A stretch of 20,000 nucleotides of DNA, taken from the IMG/VR virus record IMGVR_UViG_3300006467_001879. The stretch is one strand, 5' to 3'. Below, in pieces: positions 128 to 20,000 of this stretch. This DNA is from an uncultured virus (IMG/VR IMGVR_UViG_3300006467_001879) (lineage: Duplodnaviria > Heunggongvirae > Uroviricota > Caudoviricetes). Below the pieces are notes generated by a model that was not told where the DNA came from, made no database searches, and saw only the letters and a list, made by a program, of their open reading frames with translations. The stretch's first letter is position 1. The number at the start of each line of letters is the position of its first letter. Position numbers and translations under genes: made by a program.

Positions 128-745
128 CTATTCAATTTTCAACTTTTTGATAATATTCTCCAAAGCCTCTTCTTGTTTGTCGGTGAGCTTTCCTTTTTTT
201 TCACAGCTTTTTTTGAGGCTATGGATGAATGATGTGTCAAACCAATCGTTTTTTTCAGCCCATTTTAAAACAAGATTAATTCGGGTAAAATTTGAGTTGG
301 ACTCATAGCTTGTAAAGTCAAGAAGCTTTTGGTTGATTCGCTCTTTAATATTGAGCTGTTTTCCTGATAGGTTTCGTTTTCTTATGATGTCTTGATAAAA
401 GTCGTATTCAAAATCGCTAAGTAATTTCTTATCCTTCATAAATTCAAGTACTTCGGCACTCATGCTTTTTGAAATATCTTCTTTTAACCGTTTGATTGAT
501 GTAAAGATCTTGTTGCCGTCATCAATGTTCAAGAATTTATTTACGCAACAATTTCCGACTTCGGTTATAGTGCCGTTGATTCTATTCTTAATAACACAGA
601 TATTCTTTATTGGGTAATGACCACATAAACACGATTCAAGCTCTTCACTGTAATAAGCGTAGTCAAAATCCCATTCAAACTTGGCATCCGTCCAGTTGTT
701 GGATTCACTTCTATCAATTATTTCAGTTATGAGTTTATATTCCAT
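128..745 (-). CDS. Hypothetical protein with putative Zn-binding Cys/His cluster
   Basis: 205-aa ORF with CLCGH...C...VGNCCV, and two C-terminal helical segments sharing L[ST]xKQ. Starts 3 nt after the upstream stop. Confidence 0.75.
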   Translation of the reverse strand: MEYKLITEIIDRSESNNWTDAKFEWDFDYAYYSEELESCLCGHYPIKNICVIKNRINGTITEVGNCCVNKFLNIDDGNKIFTSIKRLKEDISKSMSAEVLEFMKDKKLLSDFEYDFYQDIIRKRNLSGKQLNIKERINQKLLDFTSYESNSNFTRINLVLKWAEKNDWFDTSFIHSLKKSCEKKGKLTDKQEEALENIIKKLKIE

Positions 746-748
746 AAG

Positions 749-4605: not shown

Positions 4606-4617
4606 ATTCTAATATTC

Positions 4618-5673: not shown

Positions 5674-6440
5674 TCTAAAATATCTTTTAATAAATCGCCA
5701 AAATACTCACTCATGTAAGCCTTCAATTGCGGTTCTTTTTTTCGTCTCCTTGCATAGTTCAGCATTCGGCTAAAATTAACATGATACCTTTTTAAGGCAT
5801 TTTCAAACAGTGTTTCCATTTCACTTCCTTGAACCGTGTAAAAGGTTATTGGATCGCAGAATATATCCACCAACATTTTTTCTAAAGTCGGAACCTGAAT
5901 TTTATCCTTTGCCTTTGGTTTTATGGAAACCTTTTGTTTAGGCGAACGGCTAATAAGCGGTTTTATAACGATGGAAATTTCACTTTCCACATACCTTTCC
6001 ATGATGTCCTCATTAGGATCGAGATACACTCGGTATTGTTTGGATTCGGAATAGGCGTTGAATACTTCTTCCACAAAATCCCTTTCTACCTCTAATAAAT
6101 AGAAGAAAGTCCCCATTTGATGTCTTGTAAAGTCATTAAACCATTCAGTACTCCATAAGCAGTAATCTAGGTTGTCAAACTCCTTAGCGACAATTTTTGA
6201 GAGCTTTACAAGTTTATCAGAAATGGCAGGAACATACTTCTTACTGTTTGAAATACTGTAAACCCCTCGTTTTACGGATTTAATGATATTCTTATTTAGT
6301 AAGTCATGGATACGCCATGATAAAGCCGTTTCGGTCATTTCCGGATCGAATTGCTTTAAAAAGGCGAATAGCTCATCCCGATCGAATTGAGTTACGTCCT
6401 TAAAAGTCTCTATTAGCTGTTTCTCTATGAACTTTGTCAT
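5670..6440 (-). CDS. abiEi: AbiEi-like antitoxin / transcriptional regulator (DUF6577-like)
   Basis: N-terminal winged-helix pattern (LSWRIHDLLNKNIIKSVKRGVY); C-terminal PTLEKMLVDIF and YARRR; directly upstream of and coupled to the AbiEii gene. Confidence 0.8.
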   Translation of the reverse strand: MTKFIEKQLIETFKDVTQFDRDELFAFLKQFDPEMTETALSWRIHDLLNKNIIKSVKRGVYSISNSKKYVPAISDKLVKLSKIVAKEFDNLDYCLWSTEWFNDFTRHQMGTFFYLLEVERDFVEEVFNAYSESKQYRVYLDPNEDIMERYVESEISIVIKPLISRSPKQKVSIKPKAKDKIQVPTLEKMLVDIFCDPITFYTVQGSEMETLFENALKRYHVNFSRMLNYARRRKKEPQLKAYMSEYFGDLLKDILE

Positions 6441-6443
6441 TGT

Positions 6444-6576
6444 CTATAATTAACCACTAAACCTTATTTAGTGGCGTTATTTAGTAAAATTATAATTAGC
6501 CACCGATACAAATATAGTGGTTATTTTTGAAATTACTATAATTAGCCACCAAAATCCGTTTAGTGGCTAATTATAG
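6444..6576. repeat. Three tandem palindromic operator-like units with a 46-bp period
   Basis: TATAATTARCCAC at 6445, 6491 and 6537, each followed by 13 nt and then GTGG. The third unit is a perfect inverted repeat, CTATAATTAGCCAC-N13-GTGGCTAATTATAG (6536-6576). Confidence 0.9.
6509..6516 (-). promoter_or_regulatory. Putative Bacteroidota sigma-A -7 element (TATATTTG) for the abiE operon
   Basis: Minus strand reads TATATTTG, matching TAnnTTTG, about 70 nt upstream of the abiEi start and inside the spacer of repeat unit 2. No clear -33 element seen. Confidence 0.55.
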
Positions 6577-7049: not shown

Positions 7050-7937
7050 ATGAATCCATATAACGATGAGTTGATGGCATACGAAGATGATGCCGAAGAC
7101 AGATACGATGACTACGATGGGTATGAAGAAGATGACTTCGATACCGGTTTTGAAGGTCATGAAGACAGTTATTACGATGAGGATGAATACTACGATGAAG
7201 AAGTAGAATACATTCCTGCCGATGATGACGACATGTACGATAGTTACAAAACAAATTCTATCGGACGTATTGACCCTAACGACCGAACCCTGACCGTAGT
7301 AGTGAAAAATACTTCCGGAGCTGATGCAGAAGCCATTCTGTTTGGAGCAAACGAAGAAGCAGCACAACCTGCCGGTGTAACGGTAAGCGTTGAAGAGAGT
7401 TCACACAAAGAAGTAAGGGAGGAATCAAAAGCCAACCCATTCAAGATTGTGGGAATGAAAATGTCGGTTTCCAATCCATTGCAATTTGACAATGTATTGA
7501 AGATCAATAAAAGGACAGCGACAGGAAGCAATTCGGTAAGAGTTTACCAACCAAGAAATGCAACTTCTCCACAAAACTTCACTCAAGGTTTGATTGATGA
7601 CAACAACTTTGAAGTGGACGTTACCGGACAAGACAGCATTAGATTATTGCTTAAAGATGGTGTAACGGTGGTATTCACCTTCACAATCAAGGCAAGAGCC
7701 AACATGGGTAACTTATTGGACGGTAAAAATGTTGCCGAGCTTTCAACTGCTCCTAGAACAACTGGTCTTCCACAATTAGACTTAATCAGAAGTAAAAAGC
7801 CGACAGCCTTTGGTTTGAAGCCTAAGAAACTGGTAAAGAAGATTGTCAGAAAGAGACCTAGTCCTGTTAAACGCAGACGTGGTATTTCAATGAGAAGACG
7901 ACCTGGAGGAAGAGGATTCTTACGCAGAAGAAGATAA
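7050..7937 (+). CDS. Candidate major capsid/structural protein: acidic N-terminus, beta-sandwich core, basic C-terminus
   Basis: About 65 aa of D/E/Y-rich N-terminus; about 140 aa of alternating beta-strand pattern; K/R-rich tail ending RRRPGGRGFLRRRR; no TM; followed by a terminator-like hairpin. The ORF is solid, the function is inferred. Confidence 0.55.
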   Translation: MNPYNDELMAYEDDAEDRYDDYDGYEEDDFDTGFEGHEDSYYDEDEYYDEEVEYIPADDDDMYDSYKTNSIGRIDPNDRTLTVVVKNTSGADAEAILFGANEEAAQPAGVTVSVEESSHKEVREESKANPFKIVGMKMSVSNPLQFDNVLKINKRTATGSNSVRVYQPRNATSPQNFTQGLIDDNNFEVDVTGQDSIRLLLKDGVTVVFTFTIKARANMGNLLDGKNVAELSTAPRTTGLPQLDLIRSKKPTAFGLKPKKLVKKIVRKRPSPVKRRRGISMRRRPGGRGFLRRRR

Positions 7938-7983
7938 GAACCTATGCAAGCTGTAAAAGGCTCATAACAGGGACAATTTAAAG

Positions 7984-8020
7984 CAGCCAAAGTCAGCGTG
8001 ATAGCTCTTTGGCTGTTTTT
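7984..8020 (+). terminator. Intrinsic terminator-like hairpin
   Basis: CAGCCAAAG (7984-7992) pairs with CTTTGGCTG (8007-8015), followed by TTTTT. Confidence 0.7.
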
Positions 8021-8043
8021 GTAAAAACTCAAATTGAAATACG

Positions 8044-8676
8044 ATGCAAAAAAGTTTAACAAGGTCGAAATACGCACAAAATCGCATTGCCTACATCGTG
8101 TATGGCAATCCGGATGGGGCACGCAAGTTTTTGTTTGACCAAGGGTATCATGCTCCAAAGAACATTCACGATTTAGTGAAGGCAACTAAGGAACTGGTGA
8201 AAACGGAAGGCAAAAGCATTGTTCCGCACTTGTTAACTATTCATCCGGAAAAAGATTTGATTTTGAAACTAAACCAACCAAAGGAAGATAGCTTTTGCGG
8301 TTCATGTGGCAGCAGCTCTTTTAATCCTGAATCCAACTTTTGCGGGGCTTGTGGCAACAGCAATTTTGGTGGTGATTCCAACTTGGATGTAGGCGACTAC
8401 ATTGATCAAATGGTGGATATGACCACTTCCCAATTGGAAAAACATTATCAGGAAGTATTGGCAGCCTCCAATAAAAAGCCGGAAGACTTATCCCTTATGG
8501 AAGAAGTTCAACTGGTTTGGAATGAATTAAGACAGCGAAAACTAACTGCTGAATCCCCAAAAAAGGAAGAACCCAAAGACAAAGACCGCTTTTCTGTTTC
8601 AAAAGACGGATTAGTGATTTTGGGGTTAACACTGGTAGCCGGTGTACTCATCGGATCCTCCATAAAAAGCAACTAA
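8044..8676 (+). CDS. Hypothetical protein with two FCGxCG repeats and a C-terminal TM
   Basis: DSFCGSCG and SNFCGACG; C-terminal GLVILGLTLVAGVLIG. Confidence 0.8.
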   Translation: MQKSLTRSKYAQNRIAYIVYGNPDGARKFLFDQGYHAPKNIHDLVKATKELVKTEGKSIVPHLLTIHPEKDLILKLNQPKEDSFCGSCGSSSFNPESNFCGACGNSNFGGDSNLDVGDYIDQMVDMTTSQLEKHYQEVLAASNKKPEDLSLMEEVQLVWNELRQRKLTAESPKKEEPKDKDRFSVSKDGLVILGLTLVAGVLIGSSIKSN

Positions 8677-8677
8677 G

Positions 8678-9247
8678 ATGATTAGAATAGTCAAAGAGGA
8701 AAATACACAGGTACTCAATCAGCAATCCAAGGCTGCTCTATCCTTAATTGGTGTAGCCGTAGCTAAAAATCCAAAGCCCTATAAAATGCTTTTGGATAGA
8801 TATGGCATTCAGGTTCCAACAAGCGATAAAATATCTCTAGCTAATGGATTGGTTGAAGGTTTAGCCCTTCAAAACAAAACATTCAATCGGGAGCTAACCG
8901 AGCTACTCAGTAATATGGTAGAATCGGAAACCGCCTATAATCCTGATGAAGATGAATACCATTATGTACAAGCCATAGCCGGAGCAATTGCCGGAATATC
9001 CGGAGCTGTGGGAAGTATCGTTGGTGGCAAGAACAAGCAGAAAATGGCAAAGGAAGAAGCTCGCAGAGAAATGCTGAATAACATGCTTGCCATGAAAGCC
9101 CAGGAACAACAAGCTGCTGCCGAAGAACGCAAGTTGGCAGGCAAGAAAAGCCTATACCTCATAATCGGAGTGTTGGGCTTACTAGGGATCATCGGCTTCT
9201 TCTACTTCCGGCAAAGAAAAAATTTAATCAATACAAATCCTTCATAA
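8678..9247 (+). CDS. Hypothetical membrane protein with Gly/Ala-rich helix, coiled coil and C-terminal TM
   Basis: AIAGAIAGISGAVGSIVGG segment; LYLIIGVLGLLGIIGFFYF followed by RQRK. Confidence 0.8.
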   Translation: MIRIVKEENTQVLNQQSKAALSLIGVAVAKNPKPYKMLLDRYGIQVPTSDKISLANGLVEGLALQNKTFNRELTELLSNMVESETAYNPDEDEYHYVQAIAGAIAGISGAVGSIVGGKNKQKMAKEEARREMLNNMLAMKAQEQQAAAEERKLAGKKSLYLIIGVLGLLGIIGFFYFRQRKNLINTNPS

Positions 9248-9257
9248 ACGATAGATC

Positions 9258-9677
9258 ATGGAAATAAGCAATTATAACTACGGAATAAGTGGTCAGCCTA
9301 CAAACGAGTGGGACAACTTTTTATGCTTTGGTAGAAAATGTAAGCAAGGAAAAGCCGAAAGGCATAAGCTTAGAATGGAAAAGCGAAAGCTAAAAAATGA
9401 CCAAAGGCGTGCTGAGACAGAATCTATGAGAGCAGAAACAAGCTTAACGAAGCAATTGGCTTCGCCAACATCTACTCCAACTCCGCAGATGGCTCCACAA
9501 ATGATGATGCAACAAGCACCACAACCAACATCAACGGCACAAGCTCCAGCTCCACAAGTGCAAAAAGCAGGTATGGGAAGTCCGGTAATGATTGTCATCG
9601 GTTTGCTTGTAGTTGGAGGTTTAGTGTATCAATCCATGAAGAAAAAAGAGGCTGCTGCTCCAGTACAAACTGCTTAA
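9258..9677 (+). CDS. Hypothetical protein: basic tract, P/Q/T linker, C-terminal TM
   Basis: EWDNF, then K/R-rich helix, low-complexity linker and VMIVIGLLVVGGLVY. Confidence 0.8.
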   Translation: MEISNYNYGISGQPTNEWDNFLCFGRKCKQGKAERHKLRMEKRKLKNDQRRAETESMRAETSLTKQLASPTSTPTPQMAPQMMMQQAPQPTSTAQAPAPQVQKAGMGSPVMIVIGLLVVGGLVYQSMKKKEAAAPVQTA

Positions 9678-9687
9678 AATTTAAGTT

Positions 9688-10236
9688 ATGATAGCTGCAA
9701 ACCCGATATATGAATTACAGTTTTATGGAGGTCTTTTAGAAGAGGAAGACAACTTTGTTGATGGCTTAGGAAATGAATTTGAGTACGATGAATTCATTGG
9801 TAAGTGGATCAAAAAAAGAAAGGAAAAGCGAAGCCAAAATCCTAAAGTCATTGCTCGAAGAGAAAAAAGGGATGAAAAACGAATTGCCAAAGGCAGAAAG
9901 CCTAGGTTTAGTCGTCCTGCTCCGGTGCGAACTTCCAAACCGGTAGTAAAGCAAGTTGCTCCCGATTTACCTCCAAAGAAGGAACCAATATTGAGTGAAC
10001 CACAAGTGAAAAAAGCTATGGTGGAGAGCTCTTCTAAATCAGAAGAACCAAGCACTAAACCGATGGAACAAACCGAAACAATTGCTTCGGAAAGCACTAC
10101 GAATTTAACAGCCGAAAACACAGAAAACCAACCACAACAAGCCTCTATGCTGCCTTTTGGCATGAGCAAGAAGACCTTGGTTTTTGTGGGTGTTGGTGTG
10201 GCTGCATTGGTAGTAATTGGAATAATCAGAAAATAA
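9688..10236 (+). CDS. Hypothetical protein: acidic leader, basic tract, linker, C-terminal TM
   Basis: EEEDNF...EYDEF, then KWIKKRKEKR...; terminal LVFVGVGVAALVVIGII. Confidence 0.8.
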   Translation: MIAANPIYELQFYGGLLEEEDNFVDGLGNEFEYDEFIGKWIKKRKEKRSQNPKVIARREKRDEKRIAKGRKPRFSRPAPVRTSKPVVKQVAPDLPPKKEPILSEPQVKKAMVESSSKSEEPSTKPMEQTETIASESTTNLTAENTENQPQQASMLPFGMSKKTLVFVGVGVAALVVIGIIRK

Positions 10237-10245
10237 TGAATAAGC

Positions 10246-10473
10246 ATGGACATACTCGCTCAAATAACGGAAGAAGAAGCAACAACCAACGGAAACTTAC
10301 CCCAAGGTTTTCTCTTCGCCTCCATCAAGAACGTGGGAACAAGCACAGCTCTTGTGAACAATGTGCCTTTGCCTCCGGGAGAAGCCAAAAGCTACCCCTT
10401 TGTAGGAAAAGGTTATCAGGCGGTAAACTATGAGCCACAAGGTTCTACACTTAGAATATTAAGAATCCTATAA
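10246..10473 (+). CDS. Small all-beta protein (possible minor virion/vertex protein)
   Basis: 75 aa, beta-rich, ASIKNVGTSTALVNNVPLPPGEAKSY; fits the operon spacing. Confidence 0.65.
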   Translation: MDILAQITEEEATTNGNLPQGFLFASIKNVGTSTALVNNVPLPPGEAKSYPFVGKGYQAVNYEPQGSTLRILRIL

Positions 10474-10562
10474 ACAGGCAATGCCTGAGATAATTATTGA
10501 GAGACTTTGGCAATTCTAATAAAGTGAGAAGCAAATAGCAACAACATCAAAATAGCGAAACA

Positions 10563-10982
10563 ATGATTGCAGGAGAAACAGAATATATCATACATGGTGG
10601 AGAAGATAATTACGATTACTTCTTGAAAAACCTGTTTAAGAAAGATCCCAACAAACAGTCAAAACCCAAACGTACTGCCGAAGAAAAAGCAGCTCGAAAA
10701 GAGCAACGCCAACAATGGTGGGGAAAGCAAAAAGAAGGTTTTCAAAAAGCCGGAGGTGTGGAAGGTATTACCAGTACCCTAGGAAATATTGTAGGCTTTT
10801 TTAAAGACGATACACCAACGGATTATGATGTTTCCATGGGTGGACAGCCTGCCCCTGAACCTGAGAAAAAAGGCATTTCAAAAGAAGTAATGATTATCGG
10901 AGGAATAGCCGTGCTAGTGATTGCTGCATACGGCTTTTCAGTCATGCAAAAGAATAAGAAAGTACAAATCCAGTCCGCTTAA
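10563..10982 (+). CDS. Hypothetical protein: acidic leader, basic tract, amphipathic helix, C-terminal TM
   Basis: EDNYDYF, then KNLFKK...KPKR; VMIIGGIAVLVIAAYGF; TAATG coupling to the next gene. Confidence 0.8.
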   Translation: MIAGETEYIIHGGEDNYDYFLKNLFKKDPNKQSKPKRTAEEKAARKEQRQQWWGKQKEGFQKAGGVEGITSTLGNIVGFFKDDTPTDYDVSMGGQPAPEPEKKGISKEVMIIGGIAVLVIAAYGFSVMQKNKKVQIQSA

Positions 10983-11788
10983 TGTTAGTACCAGTACCAA
11001 CACATAACAATCGTTTTGTTTTGAAGGTAGGAATTAAAGCCCTTCGACCGGTCATTATTGCCCTTAAAGGTTATGATGCCCACAGAGCTAATTCCTATTA
11101 TTTCAGAAGAAAGGTTCCTTTCAAGCCCTCGGCAATGAGAGACGGCATGAATTACAAGGAAATCTCTATTCCAATGCCTTTGTCTCCTGAAACTTTGTTG
11201 GTTGAAATTTACAATAGCGAGTCCGGTGAAGACAATGGCTATGTAATTGAAAAGTTTGAATTGGAAAAACTGGATGCTTCTGAGGTTTGGGCTCAACCTG
11301 CCATGCATCGCTTCATTGACTTTGCTCAAAACTTTGCGAAGTATAGTGGTACATACAAGCCCGGATTTTTCGATTCACCCGACCATGAATTTTTGATTCA
11401 GTTACTACCAGTCATTAAAGACCAGTTTGGCAATACCATGGTAACGCCTGCTAGAACCAACCGTCAGACCGGTAGAATACAGGTCTCAAATCAGGCATTC
11501 AAACACTTTACCATTCCGGTAAGGATGTTTGTGTTATTGCATGAACGCCAACATTTTCAAATACCGACACGAGAAGAACGTCCGGCAGACCTTGCTGCAT
11601 TAAAGCTCTATTTGGATCTACAATACCCAAAAATTGAGGCGGTGTACGCTGCTACAAAAGTATTTGCCATGCACCCTGAAACCGTGGGAAGTCAGCATGT
11701 AACAAGAGCTCAGGACATTATCAATTTCATTGACAGGTATCGCAATACCCAAGAAATTATGTTAAACCACAAAGCCAAAGCCGTATGA
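10982..11788 (+). CDS. Putative zinc metalloprotease (HExxH) with N-terminal beta domain
   Basis: FVLLHERQHF followed by EERPADLAAL, an ExxAD third-ligand motif as in M48/M78-like zincins. Confidence 0.65.
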   Translation: MLVPVPTHNNRFVLKVGIKALRPVIIALKGYDAHRANSYYFRRKVPFKPSAMRDGMNYKEISIPMPLSPETLLVEIYNSESGEDNGYVIEKFELEKLDASEVWAQPAMHRFIDFAQNFAKYSGTYKPGFFDSPDHEFLIQLLPVIKDQFGNTMVTPARTNRQTGRIQVSNQAFKHFTIPVRMFVLLHERQHFQIPTREERPADLAALKLYLDLQYPKIEAVYAATKVFAMHPETVGSQHVTRAQDIINFIDRYRNTQEIMLNHKAKAV

Positions 11789-13521
11789 ACAGCAAACAGA
11801 AAATAGGGTTATTGGGAGCTTTGGCGGTGGTTGGCACAGGTTATTTCCTTTTCAAAAATGACAAGGATGAAAAGACAATAAGCACCACAGACAAAGAAAC
11901 TAAGTTGCACGGTGATGATACCGAAAGCAACTTTATTGGTATTTCCAATGCTCGTATTCATCAGGCATTAATGGCTCAAAACCCCAACTATGCTAAAGCG
12001 TATAAAAAGGACTTAAAAACATGGGGAACAGTATCGGGCGTGATAGATGTTTCCAATGACTTTGATGAAGCCAAACGCAAGAAAAAGAAATTAAAAGCCT
12101 TTGCCCAAAAAGCATTGGAAGTTCAGAAGAACTACAAGGAAAAGGCTGCCTATTTACCCGAAATATCCAAAACACAAATTTCCCTTACCAATAATGGGAC
12201 TTCAGTTAGAACCGTCAATTTATGGGGAGCTAATATGGCTACTTCTATCAGTAAGCCATTACCCGAAGATGTTCAGGATCACAAGGTAAATCAAGAAGTA
12301 CAAACAGGCATACATCCTCAAAATGTAGGCTTCAATTCGTTCAATGGATTACTGTATGTAGCCAATCAGTTGAGCGATAGTATTACTATCATGGATAAGT
12401 CGGGAGCAATTGTAAAAACCGTTGCTTTGGGTAGTGTTTATCCCGGATTTGTTTCTCCGGTGGATGTTGCCTTTAACCCTTCTAATGGGGAAGCATGGGT
12501 AGTATGTTCGGTTGAGAATACAGTTAAAATATTGGATGCTACGCATAACATCATTCAAACCATTCCAGTAGGCAATCGACCAACTTCCATTGCTTACAAT
12601 CCTGAAAATAGCTGTTTTTATGTGAGCAATTTATTGGATGATACGCTTTCCAAAATTGACAGTACTAGCTACAATGTAGTAGTGACTTTAAATACCGGAG
12701 AAGATCCAAGAACAGTTTCGGTATGGACTGAACAAGGAACGGTTTGGGTAAGCAATTCAAGTTCAGATTCAGTTAGTGTTTTTGATGCAGCCGATAATCT
12801 GCTAAATGAAATAAATGCCACAGGAGATTATCCTACGGAGTTTACCACAACAACAAGCAGCCTGTTTTTGATAACCAAGAACAGCAAAGAGTTACTGGAA
12901 CTCAATCCGCAAACGCAAAATATTGAAAACACCTATCCACTAGGGTTTCAACCAAGTGGATTGGTCTATAATCCGGTTAATGGATTTTTATACGTGTTGA
13001 GCAGTCAAACTGGCTTAACCTATATTTATTCCACTACCGGAACACGTTCAGAGACTTTGTCGCTAAACAATGCACCAAACATTGGAATAGCTGCCTTACC
13101 AAATGGCGAGGTATTTACAACCAATACAAGTGGTGGCAACCTTGCTTTTATCGGTTATTCCGAAAGCAGTAGCGACATTACAATAAATGAAAGTTACCCT
13201 GAAAAACGAGCGGAATTTCAGTTCAAACCTGCATTGGTTAAACATGCCAAGTTTGTGTTTTCGGATGAAAACCGAGCAAGTGGCTTAAAACTGATTCACC
13301 AAAGTCCAACAGGGAAACAACACGTTACCCCGATTTCATTCAACAATTACAAAAGTCCACAAAACTACCTCGATGTAGCGGAAGTAACAGCCGTTCGTGG
13401 TGATGTGATTGATGGAAAATCAACATGGGAGTTTAAGATAGCTCCTGGACAGACCATTACCATTTTGGTCTATTACAAACAGCTTCAATTCAAATATTTA
13501 ATACCAACAATTAAAATTTAA
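11785..13521 (+). CDS. Membrane-anchored YVTN/YncE-type beta-propeller protein, with the propeller inserted in a domain paralogous to ORF 7050
   Basis: N-terminal TM; repeats LYVANQLSDSITIMD, FYVSNLLDDTLSKID, VWVSNSSSDSVSVFD and IPVGNRPTSIAYNP; flanking segments align with ORF 7050. Confidence 0.85.
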   Translation: MNSKQKIGLLGALAVVGTGYFLFKNDKDEKTISTTDKETKLHGDDTESNFIGISNARIHQALMAQNPNYAKAYKKDLKTWGTVSGVIDVSNDFDEAKRKKKKLKAFAQKALEVQKNYKEKAAYLPEISKTQISLTNNGTSVRTVNLWGANMATSISKPLPEDVQDHKVNQEVQTGIHPQNVGFNSFNGLLYVANQLSDSITIMDKSGAIVKTVALGSVYPGFVSPVDVAFNPSNGEAWVVCSVENTVKILDATHNIIQTIPVGNRPTSIAYNPENSCFYVSNLLDDTLSKIDSTSYNVVVTLNTGEDPRTVSVWTEQGTVWVSNSSSDSVSVFDAADNLLNEINATGDYPTEFTTTTSSLFLITKNSKELLELNPQTQNIENTYPLGFQPSGLVYNPVNGFLYVLSSQTGLTYIYSTTGTRSETLSLNNAPNIGIAALPNGEVFTTNTSGGNLAFIGYSESSSDITINESYPEKRAEFQFKPALVKHAKFVFSDENRASGLKLIHQSPTGKQHVTPISFNNYKSPQNYLDVAEVTAVRGDVIDGKSTWEFKIAPGQTITILVYYKQLQFKYLIPTIKI

Positions 13522-13525
13522 AACA

Positions 13526-14020
13526 ATGGGAAAATTAAACTATCTGGTCATTCACTGTACCGCAAGTCCTGAAGGCAAAGAGCTTACTAAGGACGATATT
13601 ATTCGCATGCACACTAACCCAAAACATTTGGGAGGAAGAGGTTGGAATCGTCCGGGATATTCCGACATCGTGTACCTCGATGGAGAGCTTGTAAACATCA
13701 TACCATTCAACCAAGACGATCAAGTGGATCCATGGGAAATATCCAATGGAGTACGTGGCATCAATGGTAATTCAAGGCATGTGGTGTATGTAGGTGGTGT
13801 TGATGAAAGTGGAGAAAAGCCAAAAGACACAAGAACTAAAAAGCAAAAAGGCACTTTAGAAACCTATGTAAAGTTCATGGTATTACGTCATCCGCATATT
13901 CAGGTTTTAGGACATAATCAAGCTCCCGGAGCAAGCAAGGCTTGTCCAAGTTTTGATGTTCCTAAGTGGTTGGAAAGCATCGGTATTTCAGAGGTAAACA
14001 TTTACAAAGAAGAAGACTAA
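13526..14020 (+). CDS. N-acetylmuramoyl-L-alanine amidase (Amidase_2, T7 lysozyme-like)
   Basis: YLVIHCTA, GW..PGY, YVGG, LGH and KACPSFDV motifs. Confidence 0.92.
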   Translation: MGKLNYLVIHCTASPEGKELTKDDIIRMHTNPKHLGGRGWNRPGYSDIVYLDGELVNIIPFNQDDQVDPWEISNGVRGINGNSRHVVYVGGVDESGEKPKDTRTKKQKGTLETYVKFMVLRHPHIQVLGHNQAPGASKACPSFDVPKWLESIGISEVNIYKEED

Positions 14021-14205
14021 TGAGAACGGTAATCACATTGGCAATAGGCTTTTGGCTAGGCAGGCAAATCTACATTAAGTTCGACAAACAAACGGCTCTT
14101 AAAAAGGAAGAGCAAATCAAAAAACGCTTGAAGTCCTTTTTGGAAGATAATGGCTTAACCAAAAGTGAAGTGAAAGAAACCACGGAAGAAATTATAGGCA
14201 TATAA
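14020..14205 (+). CDS. Small protein with N-terminal hydrophobic anchor (start revised from 13966)
   Basis: ATG overlaps the amidase stop (TAATG); MRTVITLAIGFWLGR..., 61 aa. Confidence 0.7.
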   Translation: MRTVITLAIGFWLGRQIYIKFDKQTALKKEEQIKKRLKSFLEDNGLTKSEVKETTEEIIGI

Positions 14206-14228
14206 ATCAATCCCAAAAATCAGAAAAC

Positions 14229-14702
14229 ATGGTAGGAGCAGTTGCAGGAGCAAAAGCCGTTGAAGGCTTATCACAAAACAAGGCTACCCCTTACATCATA
14301 GGGGGAATTATCCTCGTGGGTATTGGCATTACTTATTTTGGAGTGATACGCCCGATTCTTTGCAAAACTGGAATAGCCGACTGTAAAAGCAGCAAGAAGA
14401 TTCGAGACATTATGAGCTACAAAGGCTTTGATCCGAATTATGCTCGTCCTGAAAAAATCACGCTTTCCCACGATAGAGCAAAACAACTGGCTACCCAAAT
14501 TTATGATGCCGGTTCCTGGTATAATGATGATGAAGGAGCGATTTATTCTGCTTTGGAAGAAACCGGAAGTGCTGATAACCTTTCCCTGATTTCTCGAATG
14601 TTCAGTGCCATGAAATATGGCAGTTTGGCTGAATACATCACTTATTACCTAGATGATCCCGATGAAGTGGCACGAGTAAAAGACATTTTAGAAAGCTATT
14701 AA
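14229..14702 (+). CDS. Membrane-anchored protein with an annexin-like repeat
   Basis: TM YIIGGIILVGIGITYFGVI. AKQLATQIYDAGSWYNDDEGAIYSAL...ISRMF...YGSLAEYI resembles the annexin repeat (A..L..A..G.GTDE.AI..IL...Y...YG.SL). Confidence 0.6.
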   Translation: MVGAVAGAKAVEGLSQNKATPYIIGGIILVGIGITYFGVIRPILCKTGIADCKSSKKIRDIMSYKGFDPNYARPEKITLSHDRAKQLATQIYDAGSWYNDDEGAIYSALEETGSADNLSLISRMFSAMKYGSLAEYITYYLDDPDEVARVKDILESY

Positions 14703-14713
14703 CCTTTAGAATT

Positions 14714-15121
14714 ATGGATGCAAAGACAAAGAAATATTTAATCATAGGTGGCGTAGCAACGGTCGTTGTAGCACTTGCAGGATTTGGAGTTCACAAGTTT
14801 ATCAAGAACCGAAAAAACCGCACTACAAGTGGCAAACAAAAAGAACGAGAAGAACAAAAGCTCATTGGTAAAAAGGTGCATTACGGATCGGAAGGTTATG
14901 TCAATGTAAGAAGCTCTGCCAAAGTGGATAATGAGAACTGGACTACTATGGATTTCTCGCACAACCTATTAACACAAGCAGAAAGTAATCCTGTGGGAAC
15001 CATTTTAGAACGCCTCAAAGGTGAAGATGGCTATTACTGGTACAAGATAAAACTGACCAAGCCTGTGGGAAGCAAAACCGAAGGCTATGTGCGTGAAGAT
15101 GCAGTTGTTGTTCAATATTAA
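14714..15121 (+). CDS. Membrane-anchored SH3b-like domain protein
   Basis: N-terminal TM; YVNVRSSA...GYYWYKI...EGYVREDAV. Confidence 0.75.
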   Translation: MDAKTKKYLIIGGVATVVVALAGFGVHKFIKNRKNRTTSGKQKEREEQKLIGKKVHYGSEGYVNVRSSAKVDNENWTTMDFSHNLLTQAESNPVGTILERLKGEDGYYWYKIKLTKPVGSKTEGYVREDAVVVQY

Positions 15122-15133
15122 ACCCTAAAAGAC

Positions 15134-15514
15134 ATGAAGAAAGAGACAATTAAACTGGATAATAAAATGCTATGGATCGGAGCTGGACTGGCAGTTACAG
15201 CAGCCGGTTTTGGCGTATGGTATTTTCTGAAAAAACGAAAAGAGAAACAGCAATTTGCTGCAAGCATTAAAGGAACAACCACTTCGAGCAGTTCTTCAGG
15301 AGTTCGCTCATTTAGTTGCATGTATTCCGATAGCAGCTTCCCATTGAAATTCGGAACCTGTGGAACCAATGTGAAGAAGCTCCAAAACTACCTAAACTCA
15401 AAAGGATCAGGAATAGATACAGATGGCAAGTTTGGTCCGAAAACAGAAGCAGCAGTTCAGAAGGTATTTGGCACTAAAACGGTGTCTCAGGAGAAATTCA
15501 AAACGATAAGCTAA
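15134..15514 (+). CDS. Membrane-anchored peptidoglycan-binding (PG_binding_1) protein
   Basis: N-terminal TM; PLKFGTCGTNVKKLQNYLN...DGKFGPKTEAAV. Confidence 0.85.
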   Translation: MKKETIKLDNKMLWIGAGLAVTAAGFGVWYFLKKRKEKQQFAASIKGTTTSSSSSGVRSFSCMYSDSSFPLKFGTCGTNVKKLQNYLNSKGSGIDTDGKFGPKTEAAVQKVFGTKTVSQEKFKTIS

Positions 15515-15518
15515 TACT

Positions 15519-15719
15519 ATGGAAACAGAAGAAAGAACAGGCATAAAAAACTATTTGGACAATGTGTTTAGCGATGATGGATTAAAAACCGACATCAAAA
15601 TCACAATGACCGATGAGACATTGAGAAAGACAAGCTTGTACCTAGTGGGTTCAGGCTTGGTGATTACGCTCATCGTTTTTGGTATTCGAGGAATTGTAAA
15701 AAATATGGAAGCTCAGTAA
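15519..15719 (+). CDS. Small protein with C-terminal TM
   Basis: 66 aa; LYLVGSGLVITLIVFGI; TAATG coupling to the next gene. Confidence 0.75.
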   Translation: METEERTGIKNYLDNVFSDDGLKTDIKITMTDETLRKTSLYLVGSGLVITLIVFGIRGIVKNMEAQ

Positions 15720-16066
15720 TGAATAAGAAGGTTGTTGCATTATTCGCTATATCCGTTTTTGCCGGAGCCGGTTATGTGGCTTGGGCGTATTCTCCTTTGG
15801 GAAAAACGATCATTTCTAAACGCCTATTAATTCGTTGGGAAAAGGATTTAAAAGTGGACAAGGCAAATAAAGATCTTCTTGAAAAAGAGCTCAAAGTATT
15901 GGATTACGAACAGCATGTTTTACTATGGAATTTAACTCGATGGCATTTAGCCAAACCTTCCGAGAGGAAAGAGAAAAAGCTCAAAAATTTGGCTTTGCAG
16001 CTAAACGAATCGGGTATAGAAAAGCATGCAGCCCTCAAACAGATAACAGATATGCTCCAATCATAA
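15719..16066 (+). CDS. Hypothetical protein with N-terminal TM
   Basis: MNKKVVALFAISVFAGAGYVAWAY followed by a helical, charged region. Confidence 0.75.
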   Translation: MNKKVVALFAISVFAGAGYVAWAYSPLGKTIISKRLLIRWEKDLKVDKANKDLLEKELKVLDYEQHVLLWNLTRWHLAKPSERKEKKLKNLALQLNESGIEKHAALKQITDMLQS

Positions 16067-16077
16067 ATGCAAGAATT

Positions 16078-16497
16078 ATGGATACAGGAATTATTACAGA
16101 AATAGCGACACAAATTATGGGATATGTGAAAAGCCTTGATTGGGCTTTCATTCTCACTTTTATCATTATCGGATATGGTATCAACTCAGAAAAGTTCACC
16201 AATCAGATCAAGCAGAAAACCAATATTTCTTCCAAGCGAAGATACCGAACGGCATTGGTGGGGTTAGTCTATGCCGTGATTCTGTATTTCATTCGAGGAT
16301 ATGAAATTAAGCATATTGAAGTACTGTTTCAATCCTTCGTATTTGCCTTTGTTTTTCACAAACTCATTTTGGATGGTTTAGTCCGCTATATAACTGGTAA
16401 AAGAACGGATTACAAAACGCTAAAGGAAAATGAAACTTCAGAGAAGTTCCATCAGACCATTGAAAAAACAAAGCAAACTGATGAAAATGCGACTTAG
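16078..16497 (+). CDS. Multi-pass membrane protein, holin candidate (start revised from 15925)
   Basis: ATG at 16078, just after the upstream stop at 16066; three hydrophobic segments and a charged C-terminal tail. Confidence 0.55.
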   Translation: MDTGIITEIATQIMGYVKSLDWAFILTFIIIGYGINSEKFTNQIKQKTNISSKRRYRTALVGLVYAVILYFIRGYEIKHIEVLFQSFVFAFVFHKLILDGLVRYITGKRTDYKTLKENETSEKFHQTIEKTKQTDENAT

Positions 16498-16846
16498 CCA
16501 TGCAGTCTTGTTGCTTTGGCTGATGACCATAATAGGTTTTGTATGGTATTGGAGCTCAAAGGATAGGTCGGCTAATCTAAACCCCAATTACGAGCAAACC
16601 ATCAAGAAACTGGAACAGCAAAACGACAGCCTCTTAGCAATCAATCAAGGTTTGCAAGAGCAAATTGTTGAGCAACTGGAAAAACAAGAAGGCATAAAGG
16701 AAGAACTAAAAAAACGAAACAAGGATTTAAAACAACTCAAATACAGAAAAAGTGAAAAGATTAGGGCTATTGGTGATTATGATAATGATGAGCTGTATCG
16801 GTTTTTCGCAGAATTTGAAACCGACAGTTTACACCATTCAGAATGA
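16481..16846 (+). CDS. N-terminal TM plus coiled coil, i-spanin-like (start probably 16481 or 16487)
   Basis: AVLLLWLMTIIGFVWYW followed by a long heptad-rich region; 3' end overlaps the next gene by 95 nt. Confidence 0.55.
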   Translation: MKMRLSHAVLLLWLMTIIGFVWYWSSKDRSANLNPNYEQTIKKLEQQNDSLLAINQGLQEQIVEQLEKQEGIKEELKKRNKDLKQLKYRKSEKIRAIGDYDNDELYRFFAEFETDSLHHSE

Positions 16847-17183
16847 TACACTTTTCTGCTTTACAGTAAGTCAGGCAAAAGTAATTGCTATTGAACTGGA
16901 AGGCAAAAAGTATCTGGATAGCATTACAGTTGAGCAAAATACACAACTGGCTTTGCAAGATTCTTTGATTCAGCAGCAGGATTCAACTATTAAGTTGCTC
17001 CATAATCAAGCGATCAACTATCAAAGCATCATTACCAATAGTAAAGAGGTAAACAATGAGGTAAACCTGCAATTGGGCTATCTAAAAACAGAAGTGAAAC
17101 GACATAAACGAGATAAGATATTCCTAGGAACCGGGCTTGGAGTAAGCATTGGAATCATAGGAATCTTAGCCATACTTAATTAA
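16752..17183 (+). CDS. Exported coiled-coil protein with C-terminal TM, spanin-like partner
   Basis: GTG start; signal peptide MKRLGLLVIMIMMSCIGFSQ; Q-rich coiled coil; terminal IFLGTGLGVSIGIIGILAIL. Confidence 0.55.
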   Translation: MKRLGLLVIMIMMSCIGFSQNLKPTVYTIQNDTLFCFTVSQAKVIAIELEGKKYLDSITVEQNTQLALQDSLIQQQDSTIKLLHNQAINYQSIITNSKEVNNEVNLQLGYLKTEVKRHKRDKIFLGTGLGVSIGIIGILAILN

Positions 17184-17189
17184 AGAATT

Positions 17190-18530
17190 ATGAGTGCAAT
17201 TGGTGGATATAGCAGTGATGTAAACCTAAACGATTTAAACTATGTGGGTGATTTTCCGGTGGAAAATAGCCTCGGTGGTTTTGGTGTTACAACTGGTGGA
17301 ACAGATGACTATGTGTTAGAATTAGATCCTGCATTGAAAAATGCTTACCGACAAGGATTGAGCATTCAAGTGAAATTCAATCAAGGAAATACAGGTGTTT
17401 CCACAATCAATATTAATGGTAAAGGAGCGGTTCCAATAATGAAAGCTGTGAACGGTTTATTGGTGGACTTAGCAGCCGATGATTTGGGAACCATCAATCA
17501 TTATTTATTACTATTTGATGGGACTTGTTTTCAAGTAGTAGCCGGTCTAAAATCGAGTATTGAAACGGCATCGGAAACCGTTGAAGGAAAAGCGAGAGTT
17601 GCCACGATTGAAGAAGTCAATGCAGGAACAAGTAACTCAACTTTTGTTACCCCTCAAAAGCTTGCAAGCTATGTAGCTGATAAGGTAACAGGACTTTGGG
17701 AAAACAAAGGAACTATTGACTGCTCAACGAATCCTAATTATCCGGCAGCCTTAGCCGGAGATGCTTATACGGTAAGTGCCGGAGGTAAAATTGGTGGAGC
17801 TGCCGGAGAAGATGTTCAGGAAATGGATGTAATTGTTTGTTTAGTTGACAATGCCGGAGGTGATCAGGCAAGCGTTGGAGCTTCATGGAATGTGATTCAA
17901 AGCAATGTTTCGCAAGCAACCGAAACTATTGCAGGAATAATCAAAGTGGCTTCACAGGCTTTGGTTAATGGTGGAATAGATGATTTGAGTGCCATTACCC
18001 CTTTGAAACTGAAAACACTTTTGGATTCAAGACTGGCGACCGAAACACTTATCGGCTTAATTGAAATTGCTACTCAGGCAGAAACCGATTTAGGAGCTGA
18101 TAACCAAAGAGCTATTACGCCATTGAGATTGAAAACTCGATTGGATAATTACCTTAATAGGGAATCACTCCTTACCATCACGGCTGAACAGATAGGAACG
18201 ACCATGTATCATACACCGGGAAGAAATCGCTATTCAGTAGTAAATGGTAATATGATACTGATTAAAGACATTCGATTAAAACGTACCGGTGGAACTGGTT
18301 CTGTTGCTGCATGGGTAATGAATTTCCCAAAGCCTAATAACAGTCCAACTGGAGCTTTATCAGGGACTTTAACTAGTAATCAAGGTGAAACTTTCTTTTA
18401 CAACATTGATGGTAATGGAAGGGTATCAATATTTGGAAATTTTATAGATCCGAACGATGAATTGCTTTTCAATATTCATCCTTATATCGCCAAATACCCA
18501 ATTGAATACGATGCTACTTCACCTGCTTAA
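17190..18530 (+). CDS. Phage fibre/spike-like protein
   Basis: NTGVSTININGKGAVPI domain, three A[ST]ET..G....A[ST]......G......[VI]TP.[KR]L repeats resembling T4 gp34/gp12-type fibre repeats, and a beta-rich C-terminal tip. Confidence 0.8.
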   Translation: MSAIGGYSSDVNLNDLNYVGDFPVENSLGGFGVTTGGTDDYVLELDPALKNAYRQGLSIQVKFNQGNTGVSTININGKGAVPIMKAVNGLLVDLAADDLGTINHYLLLFDGTCFQVVAGLKSSIETASETVEGKARVATIEEVNAGTSNSTFVTPQKLASYVADKVTGLWENKGTIDCSTNPNYPAALAGDAYTVSAGGKIGGAAGEDVQEMDVIVCLVDNAGGDQASVGASWNVIQSNVSQATETIAGIIKVASQALVNGGIDDLSAITPLKLKTLLDSRLATETLIGLIEIATQAETDLGADNQRAITPLRLKTRLDNYLNRESLLTITAEQIGTTMYHTPGRNRYSVVNGNMILIKDIRLKRTGGTGSVAAWVMNFPKPNNSPTGALSGTLTSNQGETFFYNIDGNGRVSIFGNFIDPNDELLFNIHPYIAKYPIEYDATSPA

Positions 18531-18533
18531 ACG

Positions 18534-18869
18534 ATGACTATGGAACTATGGAAAATAATAACGCTGATTTTAGGAGCTACCGGATTTTGGAAGCTGCTTG
18601 AAATCCTTGTTCGCCTACGTACCGACAAAAAAGTGAAGTTAGCAGAGGCTATTAACCTGCATGCACAGGCAGAAAATCAGATTGTTGCAAATTGGATACA
18701 GTGGTCGCAAATGTTAGAAAAGAGAATCAAAGAATCGGAGGAACATACAGAAGCATTACAAAAAGTAATAGAGAACCAACGCAAACGCATCCAAGATTTG
18801 GAGAAAAAAGTGGTTCACATGGAAAAACAGAATAAGGAATTAATTAACGAGCTAAAACGCATAAAATAA
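18534..18869 (+). CDS. N-terminal TM plus coiled-coil protein (holin-like/phage membrane protein)
   Basis: IITLILGATGFW, followed by a long C-terminal coiled coil. Confidence 0.7.
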   Translation: MTMELWKIITLILGATGFWKLLEILVRLRTDKKVKLAEAINLHAQAENQIVANWIQWSQMLEKRIKESEEHTEALQKVIENQRKRIQDLEKKVVHMEKQNKELINELKRIK

Positions 18870-18876
18870 GTACGTC

Positions 18877-19026
18877 ATGAAGGAGAATAAAACAATGAAC
18901 ATCTTGTTTGCAACATTTATGGTATTGTCCATTGCAAACATTTCAATCAATCTTTTGAGAATGAAAAAGAGCTGCAAATGCCAAAGCGGTGAAAGCGGTG
19001 GTTGTAGTTGTCAAAAACAAGCATAA
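18877..19026 (+). CDS. Small membrane protein with Cys-rich tail, 49 aa (not in the ORF track)
   Basis: MKENKTMNILFATFMVLSIANISINLLRMKKSCKCQSGESGGCSCQKQA*; fills the gap between 18869 and 19030. Confidence 0.7.
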   Translation: MKENKTMNILFATFMVLSIANISINLLRMKKSCKCQSGESGGCSCQKQA

Positions 19027-19029
19027 TCA

Positions 19030-19566
19030 ATGGCAGTTCAGGTAGATAAAAAGGTAGTCTTTATGGGGGTTGGTATCCTTGTGGGTGTCATTGGTATTGC
19101 TATTGCAAGTCGTTGGCTTTACAAGAAATTGGATATTCAAACCAAGTTAAAGCTCCGTCAACTTCGACCTGAAGTAAGAAAGAAGGTCGAGAAGTTTCTT
19201 ATCAAAGCTCAAAAGGCAGGCATCCCACTTAAAGTCACCAGTGCTTACCGTGATTGTGAAGAGCAAAACAAACTCTATGCACAAGGACGAACAGCTCCCG
19301 GAGGAATTGTCACCAATGCCAAATGCGGACAGTCGGATCACAATGTAGGAGTAGCAATAGATATTGTTCCTATTGTGGATGGACGAGCGAATTACAAAGT
19401 GCCTGAATCGGTATGGAATACCCTTGGAGTTATTGGTGAAAGTGTTGGTCTTTCCTGGGGAGGTCGATGGACTTCTTTTAAAGACCGTCCACATTTTTAC
19501 GACCGAGGTGGTAAATCCATTGCACAGCTTTGGACTGAACAACAAAACTTAGCAAACCTAGCATAA
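19030..19566 (+). CDS. M15-family (CwlK/Ply500-like) peptidoglycan endopeptidase with N-terminal TM
   Basis: SAYR..EEQ..LYAQGRT, SDHNVGVAIDI and WGGRW..FKDRPHF motifs. Confidence 0.92.
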   Translation: MAVQVDKKVVFMGVGILVGVIGIAIASRWLYKKLDIQTKLKLRQLRPEVRKKVEKFLIKAQKAGIPLKVTSAYRDCEEQNKLYAQGRTAPGGIVTNAKCGQSDHNVGVAIDIVPIVDGRANYKVPESVWNTLGVIGESVGLSWGGRWTSFKDRPHFYDRGGKSIAQLWTEQQNLANLA

Positions 19567-20000
19567 TGAGCGAAGCAACCAGAGTACATAAAAACGCCTA
19601 TCGAAATGGCAATGCCTCTTCCATGTTGGATTATTTGGAAGAGTTAATACTGATTCAAAGTGGTGAAAACGGAAGGCTAACCATTCCTGAAACAGAGCAA
19701 GGTTATGAAGACCTGACTGTTTCTGATGCGGAAGTGGCTCAATTAAGTGTTCCTGAAAATGCTATTTCAGCAACTATTTCCATTGAAGCCGATACAAGTG
19801 TAACGGATAAAATAAGAGTGATTCGTTTCAAAGAAAACGGTAGCAATCCAAGTGCAAATTCCGGTATTGCTTTAGGCGATAACGACCTTTATGAAATTAC
19901 CGGTCGATGGAATTTAGAAAGCTTTCGAGTTATCGGAGTTGAGGCAGGGAAAAGCCATGTTTTAAGAGTGCAATATTATCAATCTCCAAATAACACATGA
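19566..20000 (+). CDS. Beta-rich hypothetical protein (possible single jelly-roll vertex/spike protein)
   Basis: GYEDLTVS...VP..A.SATISIE...IRFKENG.NPS...GI.L...LRVQYY pattern; TAATG coupling; stop at 19998-20000. Confidence 0.6.
   Translation: MSEATRVHKNAYRNGNASSMLDYLEELILIQSGENGRLTIPETEQGYEDLTVSDAEVAQLSVPENAISATISIEADTSVTDKIRVIRFKENGSNPSANSGIALGDNDLYEITGRWNLESFRVIGVEAGKSHVLRVQYYQSPNNT

Follow-up and report, generated by a model that had tools for sequence, protein, structure and literature searches.

The window, the whole stretch of 20,000 nucleotides that was analysed, carries a structural module, rich in membrane proteins, that belongs to an element integrated in Bacteroidota genomes. 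All of the genes and sites described here are on the plus strand. The first gene, 7050 (7050..7937), encodes a putative major capsid protein with an acidic leader (aa 1-65, net charge -30), a single jelly-roll-like core at approximately aa 70-220, and an Arg-rich tail; its family comprises 267 representatives. The AlphaFold model of 7050 is a beta-sandwich (mean pLDDT 62.7), the core being one sandwich of about 150 residues. Jelly-roll structural matches reached Z 6.8 and were generic, being shared with cellular folds, and Foldseek returned weak matches, mostly to small-virus capsids. Gene 8044 (8044..8676) encodes a helical N-terminal domain, a Cys-rich tandem unit, and a C-terminal transmembrane segment, and 8678 (8678..9247) combines an 8044-like helical domain with a Gly/Ala-rich segment, a coiled coil, and a C-terminal transmembrane segment. 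The products of 9258 (9258..9677; 20-aa leader), 9688 (9688..10236; acidic leader), and 10563 (10563..10982; 19-aa leader) each continue with a Lys/Arg tract and end in a transmembrane segment, with a linker before it in 9258 and 9688. Gene 10246 (10246..10473) encodes a conserved 75-aa protein present at 74 loci. It is followed, after 10563, by a predicted zinc metalloprotease, 10982 (10982..11788), and by 11785 (11785..13521), a putative vertex/spike protein with an N-terminal hydrophobic segment and a 7050-like jelly roll bearing an inserted beta-propeller; an 11785 orthologue matched the capsid profile at E 1.5e-10. The remainder (13526..20000) encodes an amidase, peptidoglycan-binding and small membrane proteins, a spanin-like pair, a fibre-repeat protein (17190), and an M15 peptidase.

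Seven neighbouring proteins (7050, 8044, 8678, 9258, 9688, 10563, and 11785) share a four-residue motif, [Y/F/E]-[D/S]-x-[F/Y], which is placed at domain junctions, is a genuine conserved signal, and broadens in distant relatives to aromatic-x-N-[F/Y/A]-x-G. In 7050, the YDSY site at the boundary between leader and jelly roll (aa 63-66; 7236..7247) had Y63 or F in 119/119 aligned rows, D64 in 116/119, and Y66 in 119/119. Two further sites, YDDY (aa 19-22; 7104..7115) and EDDF (aa 27-30; 7128..7139), had been overlooked in the sequence-only reading and were conserved as strongly (D20, D28, and F/Y30 each in 119/119), with varying adjoining residues; YDDY is the counterpart of a family-wide AxxxFxNxxG. 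Tandem copies occur in the capsid leaders and in 8044, where EDSF, SSSF, ESNF, and NSNF alternate with two CxxC pairs (8284..8367); 8044 also contains a 45-nt tandem duplication at 8292-8381. The 8678 site, EYHY (8954-8965), was below the profile threshold, yet aligned with ESNY, YDSF, and EDSF of its orthologues. A sub-threshold Pfam T7_gp14 match in 8678 (aa 102-151, E 0.0078) begins right after the motif. The remaining sites are WDNF in 9258 (9309-9320), EDNF (9745-9756) and YDEF (9784-9795) in 9688, YDYF in 10563 (10611-10622), and ESNF in 11785 (11923-11934). The strings quoted in the sequence-only reading were all present in the ORFs to which it assigned them, and nine of its ten sites are part of the conserved motif; the tenth, NDFDE in 11785, has F in 1/25 homologous repeats and is not an instance.

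Codons at the conserved motif positions vary synonymously (TAT 34/TAC 27, GAT 63/GAC 24, TTT 64/TTC 23), indicating that the constraint acts on the protein and not on the DNA. A motif at the DNA or RNA level was excluded on two grounds, this variation and the lack of a DNA repeat common to the sites (the 8044 tandem unit excepted). The 8044 sites overlap invariant cysteines, so that structure could account for part of their conservation.

Enrichment was assessed with a profile trained on the other families, 8044 being held out, and counts were compared with composition-preserving local shuffles. A site was found in 29/35 dereplicated 8044 orthologues versus 5.5 expected (47 sites versus 6.1). 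The pattern [YE]DxF, picked after inspection of the data, occurred in 29/51 proteins of the 9258/9688 type versus 3.2 (three mis-binned rows having been removed from 54), in 33/37 of the 10563 type versus 3.0, and in 23/33 of the 8678 type versus 1.3 (2000 local shuffles each). ESNF, likewise picked after inspection, was present in 28/43 of the 11785 family versus 2.5 expected; the whole-protein profile test of this family gave no enrichment (9/44 versus 9.7). Out of sample, the motif was found in 42/52 newly collected metagenomic upstream membrane proteins versus 4.3 expected, and distant capsid leaders carried it in 41/129 cases versus 1.3. The proposal of a signal shared among these proteins and their homologues thus withstood comparison with shuffled controls. 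No enrichment was found in cargo and host proteins (39 sites versus 46.6 expected), in new metagenomic downstream membrane proteins (0/18 versus 0.9), in the rest of the module (13526..20000), or in the 10246 family, which served as an internal negative control (0/23); the tag is restricted to the genes running from capsid to spike. Apparent sites in the protease itself (11/22) are a conserved YLDYG stretch of the folded domain and were left out of the counts.

The proteins had been described as otherwise unrelated. This is correct for three groups of distinct architecture, whereas within each group similarity was detected by hhalign (7050/11785, 96%; 8044/8678, 83-96%; 9258/9688/10563, 91-97%). 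Such likeness could mean that paralogous duplication and Asp/Tyr/Phe-rich low complexity produced the motif with no common reader, an explanation to which the very acidic 7050 leader, the chance scoring of 6.2 of 11 proteins, and the single site among three tandem paralogues in L198 would lend weight. However, composition-preserving local shuffles yield about a tenth of the observed counts, near-invariant motif columns are flanked by variable positions, and the motif lies within non-homologous segments of three unrelated architectures, across which it is conserved at the protein level. This explanation is largely refuted, and we give it hardly any weight. A test for motif flavour changing in concert within the same element fell short of significance (p 0.074, 18 elements).

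A common grammar of acidic leader, motif, and basic tract had also been proposed. The charge does flip in 9258 (-2 to +6), 9688 (-6 to +7), and 10563 (-5 to +6), but 8678 (-6 to 0), 7050 (-7 to +1), and 11785 (-3 to +1) show no such flip, and the grammar applies to three of the seven proteins. Masking of charge as the main purpose of the leaders is not supported, because their median charge of -5 is too low against +14 in the following 40 residues, and because some leaders of distant relatives are too short, at 6-11 residues; many distant leaders are short or non-acidic.

The candidate reader of the motif is 10982, which consists of an N-terminal beta-sandwich and a gluzincin-like domain with HExxH at 11540-11554 and E199 and D203 downstream. 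In an alignment of 95 sequences, H187, E188, H191, and D203 were invariant and E199 was conserved in at least 90%; HExxH is kept in distant minimal forms as well. We infer that E199 is the third zinc ligand. The predicted structure (pLDDT 94.6) aligned moderately with BepA (Z 8.6, rmsd 3.4, 117 residues), and proabylysin and ZMPSTE24 each gave Z 6.5; HExxH and a downstream Glu are common to these M48-like gluzincins and 10982. Unlike them, 10982 has no membrane segments, carries an extra beta-sandwich (missing from minimal 115-aa relatives), and had no Pfam match (E up to 0.05), Peptidase M48 included, and none to a PHROGs or NCBIfam family. Neither the capsid protein nor the protease had a solved relative by sequence. 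Judged from these residues, the gluzincin-type site is intact, and proteolytic activity on the motif is predicted. The earlier suggestion of 10982 as the reader is therefore plausible: HExxH is invariant, the fold is that of a zinc protease, enzyme and motif co-occur, and some relatives have the protease fused to a protein that bears the motif. The fusion, of the protease to a long C-terminal part, was seen in 4/26 protease ORFs, and in L100, L116, and L198 a motif-like site lies between the two parts.

With genome-wide protease checks, the capsid-leader motif was present in 20/21 protease-bearing elements and in 0/7 protease-lacking ones. Membrane proteins of protease-bearing elements had 75 sites versus 35.2 expected, and those of protease-lacking elements 11 versus 8.4. 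Individual departures were L182, with a protease and no capsid-leader motif; L190 and L108, with motif-like leaders in fragmented genomes that yielded no protease; and the protease-lacking L203, with a motif-like FSDW site in its 8678-like protein. Mapped onto the capsid tree, the co-occurrence requires three label changes, with protease-lacking capsids on long branches, and may have a single evolutionary origin.

A host enzyme or insertion machinery might cut or recognise the motif instead of 10982. Many carriers are tail-anchored membrane proteins without a signal peptide, and the phage ejection protein P22 gp7, which is processed by the host, provides a precedent. Against this, the soluble capsid protein also bears the motif, enrichment is absent from host and cargo proteins, and the motif tracks the protease of the element and not simply the host group; we regard a host reader as very unlikely.

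We think it rather probable that the motif serves 10982 as a tag for recognition and cleavage during maturation of a tailless and probably membrane-containing particle. Precursors would assemble at the cytoplasmic membrane, where the tag probably also recruits them. 10982 would then cleave them, most likely immediately N-terminal to F/Y, a position taken from the preference of thermolysin-like gluzincins, which typically have a hydrophobic residue behind the cut. Cleavage would remove the acidic leader of 7050, detach the spike protein 11785 from the membrane anchor at its N-terminus, and split the helical domain of 8044 and 8678 from the membrane-anchored halves. The new N-termini in the 8678 group, Gly-rich or amphipathic, could act in membrane penetration or DNA ejection, and the strongly basic ones of 9258, 9688, and 10563 could bind DNA or anionic membranes. 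In an 8678 paralogue, the 18 residues from the motif F onward are amphipathic (hydrophobic moment 0.34 versus 0.17 +/- 0.01). This reading gives exact cut-site predictions for seven proteins; the new N-termini would include F20 in 10563, F36 in 9688, F21 in 9258, Y96 in 8678, F50 in 11785, and Y66 in 7050.

Alternatively, the motif may be a docking tag that is not cleaved, its aromatic-x-N/D-aromatic-x-G form fitting a pocket on the jelly-roll protein or the helical domain of 8044/8678 and so linking capsid, spike, and membrane proteins, with 10982 acting on another substrate. The tandem copies in capsid leaders and 8044 are consistent with docking, as are leaders of 6-11 residues, which are too small to mask a basic tract; the co-occurrence with the protease may be one event, and in adenovirus the N-terminal peptides of pVI bind the same hexon pocket as those of pVII (10.1101/857581). 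Docking leaves unexplained why the post-motif half of 8678 is a stand-alone gene, starting at the motif end, in L121, L122, L179, L181, L182, L185, and L188 (E 9e-8 to 0.036), why the protease precedes a motif-bearing protein in the fusions, and why the motif is absent from protease-lacking elements of the same capsid family. We regard docking without cleavage as unlikely, although it deserves more weight than any other alternative considered here.

Gene content points to a tailless, virus-like provirus of marine bacteria. The element family was found in 119 genome stretches, with cultured hosts among the named records (for example the marine Formosa and Fulvivirga strains of L004 and L013). 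Lysis genes are part of the module in the window, relatives carry a packaging-type ATPase and an integrase, and a replication-initiator-like gene was recognised as well. The ATPase, of the FtsK/HerA type, lies outside the window, 14-36 kb from the structural genes, and was present as one copy in 5/5 related genomes; its best full-length PDB match was STIV B204 (E 1e-6, over most of the profile length). The hallmarks of Caudoviricetes (HK97 capsid, portal, tail tube, two-domain terminase) were not found; PHROGs searches of 42 ORFs (24 in the window and 18 upstream in G001) gave no capsid, portal, or tube family. Two observations run the other way: 17190 has fibre repeats, and a PHROG labelled 'terminase large subunit' matched 9/10 of the ATPases over about 160 of 555 positions. 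Pfam, PHROGs, and NCBIfam did not recognise the element family, and a literature search, conducted mostly without subscription papers, found no description of the element or the motif.

Even if motif and protease are real, the product could be a domesticated or vesicle-like transfer particle in place of an icosahedral virion. Pattern- or BLAST-limited searches gave no match in IMG/VR (capsid, protease, and ATPase) or in isolated-phage collections, the capsid fold match is generic, the ATPase is distant from the structural genes, and attachment repeats were found neither around the G001 element nor for four large elements. The packaging, integration, replication-initiator-like, and lysis genes argue against a transfer particle, as do a 17-bp direct repeat flanking the G044 element and the atlas clusters nearest the protease, in which 54-73% of the members that have a record are viral. 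We consider such a particle quite improbable.

The sequence-only reading had linked the motif to adenovirus and NCLDV maturation. In adenovirus, one virus-encoded protease, AVP, processes several virion precursors; the cut in pVI immediately precedes an amphipathic membrane-lytic helix, and N-terminal peptides are removed from the basic core protein VII (10.1101/857581). The scheme proposed here, with one virus-encoded protease and several virion precursors, resembles this, but the link stands as an analogy only, because the protease is a zinc enzyme and the host a bacterium. AVP-type enzymes are Ulp1-like cysteine proteases, and the account in PMC4405056 places their acquisition in eukaryotic lineages and their absence in tectiviruses. 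The module has no Ulp1-like enzyme; its ORFs matched no cysteine-protease family, the one exception being a CHAP lysin seen in relatives. The element further differs from adenovirus in its single jelly-roll capsid core and its mostly membrane-anchored putative substrates. Slightly short of an even chance is, in our estimate, the fuller proposal that an undescribed, widespread Bacteroidota lineage of tailless single-jelly-roll proviruses independently evolved adenovirus-style maturation, in which one zinc protease would read a tag of four residues carried by capsid, spike, and membrane proteins, free the spike from its anchor, and expose membrane-penetrating and DNA-binding N-termini, and protease-less sister lineages would encode already-trimmed versions. 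If true, a bacterial lineage with an unrelated zinc enzyme would represent convergent evolution of virion maturation.

Short shared motifs are also known from tailed phages. In T4-like and jumbo phages, whose prohead proteases include SPN3US gp245, several head and ejection proteins have A-X-E in their N-terminal propeptides, with repeats inside a propeptide, and T4 propeptides serve in targeting too (PMC10052503). Like SPN3US propeptides, which are cut more than once (PMC10052503), one leader of the element can contain several motif copies. These are HK97-fold, portal-bearing phages; PHROGs searches of the 42 element ORFs recognised no such genes, and both the motif and the enzyme class are different. 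Sphaerolipoviridae/Helvetiavirae encode capsid proteins of the single jelly-roll type together with a packaging ATPase of the FtsK/HerA class; the known hosts listed in PMC8328091 are haloarchaea and Thermus, and these viruses have two major capsid proteins. The element has an ATPase resembling STIV B204, and its putative capsid protein, which has no sequence match to solved capsid proteins, may share the single jelly-roll fold with them and with STIV-like viruses. It differs in residing in Bacteroidota and in pairing a plain jelly roll with one that contains a propeller, 11785 being paralogous to 7050; many relatives show one jelly-roll gene only.

The pattern [YE]DxF, picked after inspection and counted with three mis-binned rows left out, was found in 33 of 37 dereplicated proteins of the 10563 type, 29 of 51 of the 9258/9688 type, and 23 of 33 of the 8678 type, all membrane-anchored at the C-terminus, compared with 3.0, 3.2, and 1.3 in local shuffles. 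In most proteins of the 10563 and 9258/9688 types, the acid-to-basic switch, located without the use of any motif, fell on D-x-F. Motif codons varied synonymously, indicating that constraint acts on the protein. A motif profile was trained on these three classes and on distant capsid leaders and then run on unseen families. It detected a site in 29 of 35 proteins of the membrane-anchored 8044 family (5.5 in shuffles) and 22 sites in the putative major capsid protein, 7050 (8.4 in shuffles); by protein, the strong acidity of the leader left 7050 with a small excess (9/11 vs. 6.2). In the putative vertex/spike protein 11785, a site lay directly behind the N-terminal hydrophobic segment in 28 of 43 cases versus 2.5 expected, with a pattern chosen post hoc, confirming the ESNF site proposed earlier. 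The second site proposed there, NDFDE, was rejected as a motif instance, since its F was present in just 1 of 25. As side observations, the motif of 8044 lies within a tandemly repeated unit of 15 residues whose CxxC pairs are invariant (window 8284-8381), and CGC adjoins it in distant relatives; these cysteines could form a zinc site or regulate the protease. Homologues of 11785 carry one to several copies of a short unit around GT..GVIDV followed by lysines (window 12022-12090).

In a metagenome test, 56 of 61 loci had a recoverable protease ORF, and 188 upstream membrane proteins were cut to 52 non-redundant ones with <60% identity to any earlier sequence. A site was present in 42 of these 52 (4.3 expected) and in 0 of 18 downstream membrane proteins (0.9 expected). 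None of 22 other element families without training overlap exceeded the shuffle maximum (protease left aside, whole-length 11785 included), and 220 cargo or host proteins showed no motif excess (39 sites vs. 46.6). Among 129 distant capsid leaders, [FY]-x-N-[FYA]-x-G occurred in 41 (1.3 expected). Median leader charge was -5, versus +14 over the next 40 residues; many distant leaders were neutral or basic, and some had only 6-11 residues. What is conserved is the tag, not acidity. The shared motif noticed in the sequence-only reading was largely real, enriched in homologues over shuffled controls, and wider in reach than described. The acidic-to-basic flip held for 9258, 9688, and 10563 but not for the other motif proteins, and the seven "otherwise unrelated" proteins formed three paralogue groups, which reduces the number of unrelated architectures sharing the motif from seven to three.

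H187, E188, H191, and D203 were invariant in the HExxH zinc protease, 10982, whose confident predicted structure gave moderate matches to BepA, proabylysin, and ZMPSTE24. Capsid-profile searches of genome samples yielded 36 loci from distant elements, of which 8 were left out (two early-ending contigs, two truncated capsids, one false hit, one duplicate, and two of the training clade). The capsid-leader motif score was at least 6 in 20 of 21 protease-bearing elements and at least 8 in 15 of 21, versus 0 of 7 protease-lacking elements at either threshold, absence of the protease having been checked genome-wide in draft genomes. The exceptions were L182 (protease but no capsid motif), L203 (motif-like site but no protease), and the fragmentary L108 and L190. 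The capsid tree needed three label changes; because it is still compatible with a single origin and protease-lacking capsids form long branches, this co-occurrence is one line of support, not statistical proof. Within elements, motif flavour showed no significant tendency to change in concert (p = 0.074). The protease-free sister group (L115, L117, L120-L123, and L203) shares capsid family and ATPase with protease bearers and encodes many short membrane proteins without leaders or strong basic tracts. Genome G1084 (L182, L185) contains jelly-roll matches, two with one in-frame stop each, possibly decaying copies.

Evidence independent of the capsid tree came from gene architecture. In seven distant elements, some with and some without the protease, the portion of 8678 that follows the motif is encoded as a separate gene. 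The protease carries a long C-terminal fusion in 4 of 26 cases; in three that were examined, a motif-like site lies at the junction. An 8678 paralogue whose post-motif segment is strongly amphipathic (L008:8621-9328) occurs in many relatives and is absent from the window; its 18 residues from F onward had a hydrophobic moment of 0.34 versus 0.17. We consider it fairly probable that 10982 recognises and cuts the motif, and the earlier interpretation as a maturation signal is supported in part. Thermolysin-like enzymes favour cleavage on the N-terminal side of hydrophobic residues; given this preference and the amphipathic segment, the cut would fall just before F/Y. From the site positions, cutting would remove capsid leaders, free the spike from its anchor, and uncover basic or amphipathic N-termini. 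The main rival, docking at the motif without cleavage, seems rather unlikely. In adenovirus, peptides of pVI and pVII occupy one hexon pocket, and both undergo cleavage (10.1101/857581), so docking and cleavage can coexist.

Cleavage by 10982 would resemble the working mode of adenovirus AVP and, in the consulted portion of PMC10052503, of the SPN3US/T4 prohead proteases, but enzyme class and capsid differ, placing the proposed system in neither group. In the accessible portions of the sources, tectiviruses are without an Ulp1-like protease (PMC4405056), single-jelly-roll viruses with packaging ATPases are confined to haloarchaea and Thermus (PMC8328091), and PMC11161782 deals with eukaryotic lineages. 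The word "protease" is absent from the main text of PMC5894146 as consulted, and the viruses of Bacteroidetes treated there are those of the double-jelly-roll FLiP group. Charybdis elements, as far as the consulted part of 10.1101/2025.08.03.668216 describes them, are far smaller and have another hallmark protein. A literature search confined to main texts listed no description of this element.

The cluster of about 24 plus-strand ORFs (window 6840 to end) most plausibly forms the structural and lysis module of a provirus without a tail, which presumably produces virions. Synteny of the cluster was kept in the 80 best of 119 genome stretches that a search with the 10982 alignment retrieved, nearly all recorded as Bacteroidota. 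The predicted fold of 7050 comprises an acidic leader, a jelly-roll-like core, and a basic tail; 11785 is its paralogue with an inserted propeller, followed downstream by amidase, M15 peptidase, and spanin-like genes. Flanks beyond the window were taken from relatives (L002 is 88-98% identical to the window over aligned blocks). A single ATPase lay upstream of the cluster in shared orientation in 5 of 5 related genomes, and its profile matched STIV B204 (positions 7-165 of 192, E 1e-6). Further upstream, G001 carried DarB-like methylase/helicase genes, a replication-initiator-like gene, and a serine integrase adjoining tRNA-Leu. The corresponding module of large elements (L087:1761-13272, L091:4898-13496) contains a serine integrase beside tRNA-Leu, an initiator-like HTH protein, a glycosyltransferase, and two giant ORFs for a DarB-like methylase and helicase. 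A smaller relative in G044, flanked by a 17-bp direct repeat, had a weak Rep_trans initiator match, ParB, and an integrase-like gene identified by reading the sequence. Minus-strand defence cargo of the window (128-6440; DUF2779, GmrSD, and an AbiEii pair) fills a variable slot between the ATPase and the structural module, where relatives hold other restriction and AbiE-type genes. Three 32-nt palindromic repeats at 46-nt spacing (window 6444-6576), upstream of the minus-strand DUF6577/AbiEii pair, are probably antitoxin operator sites. Window 17190-18530 encodes a tail-fibre-type repeat protein, possibly a vertex fibre, though the element shows no tail genes.
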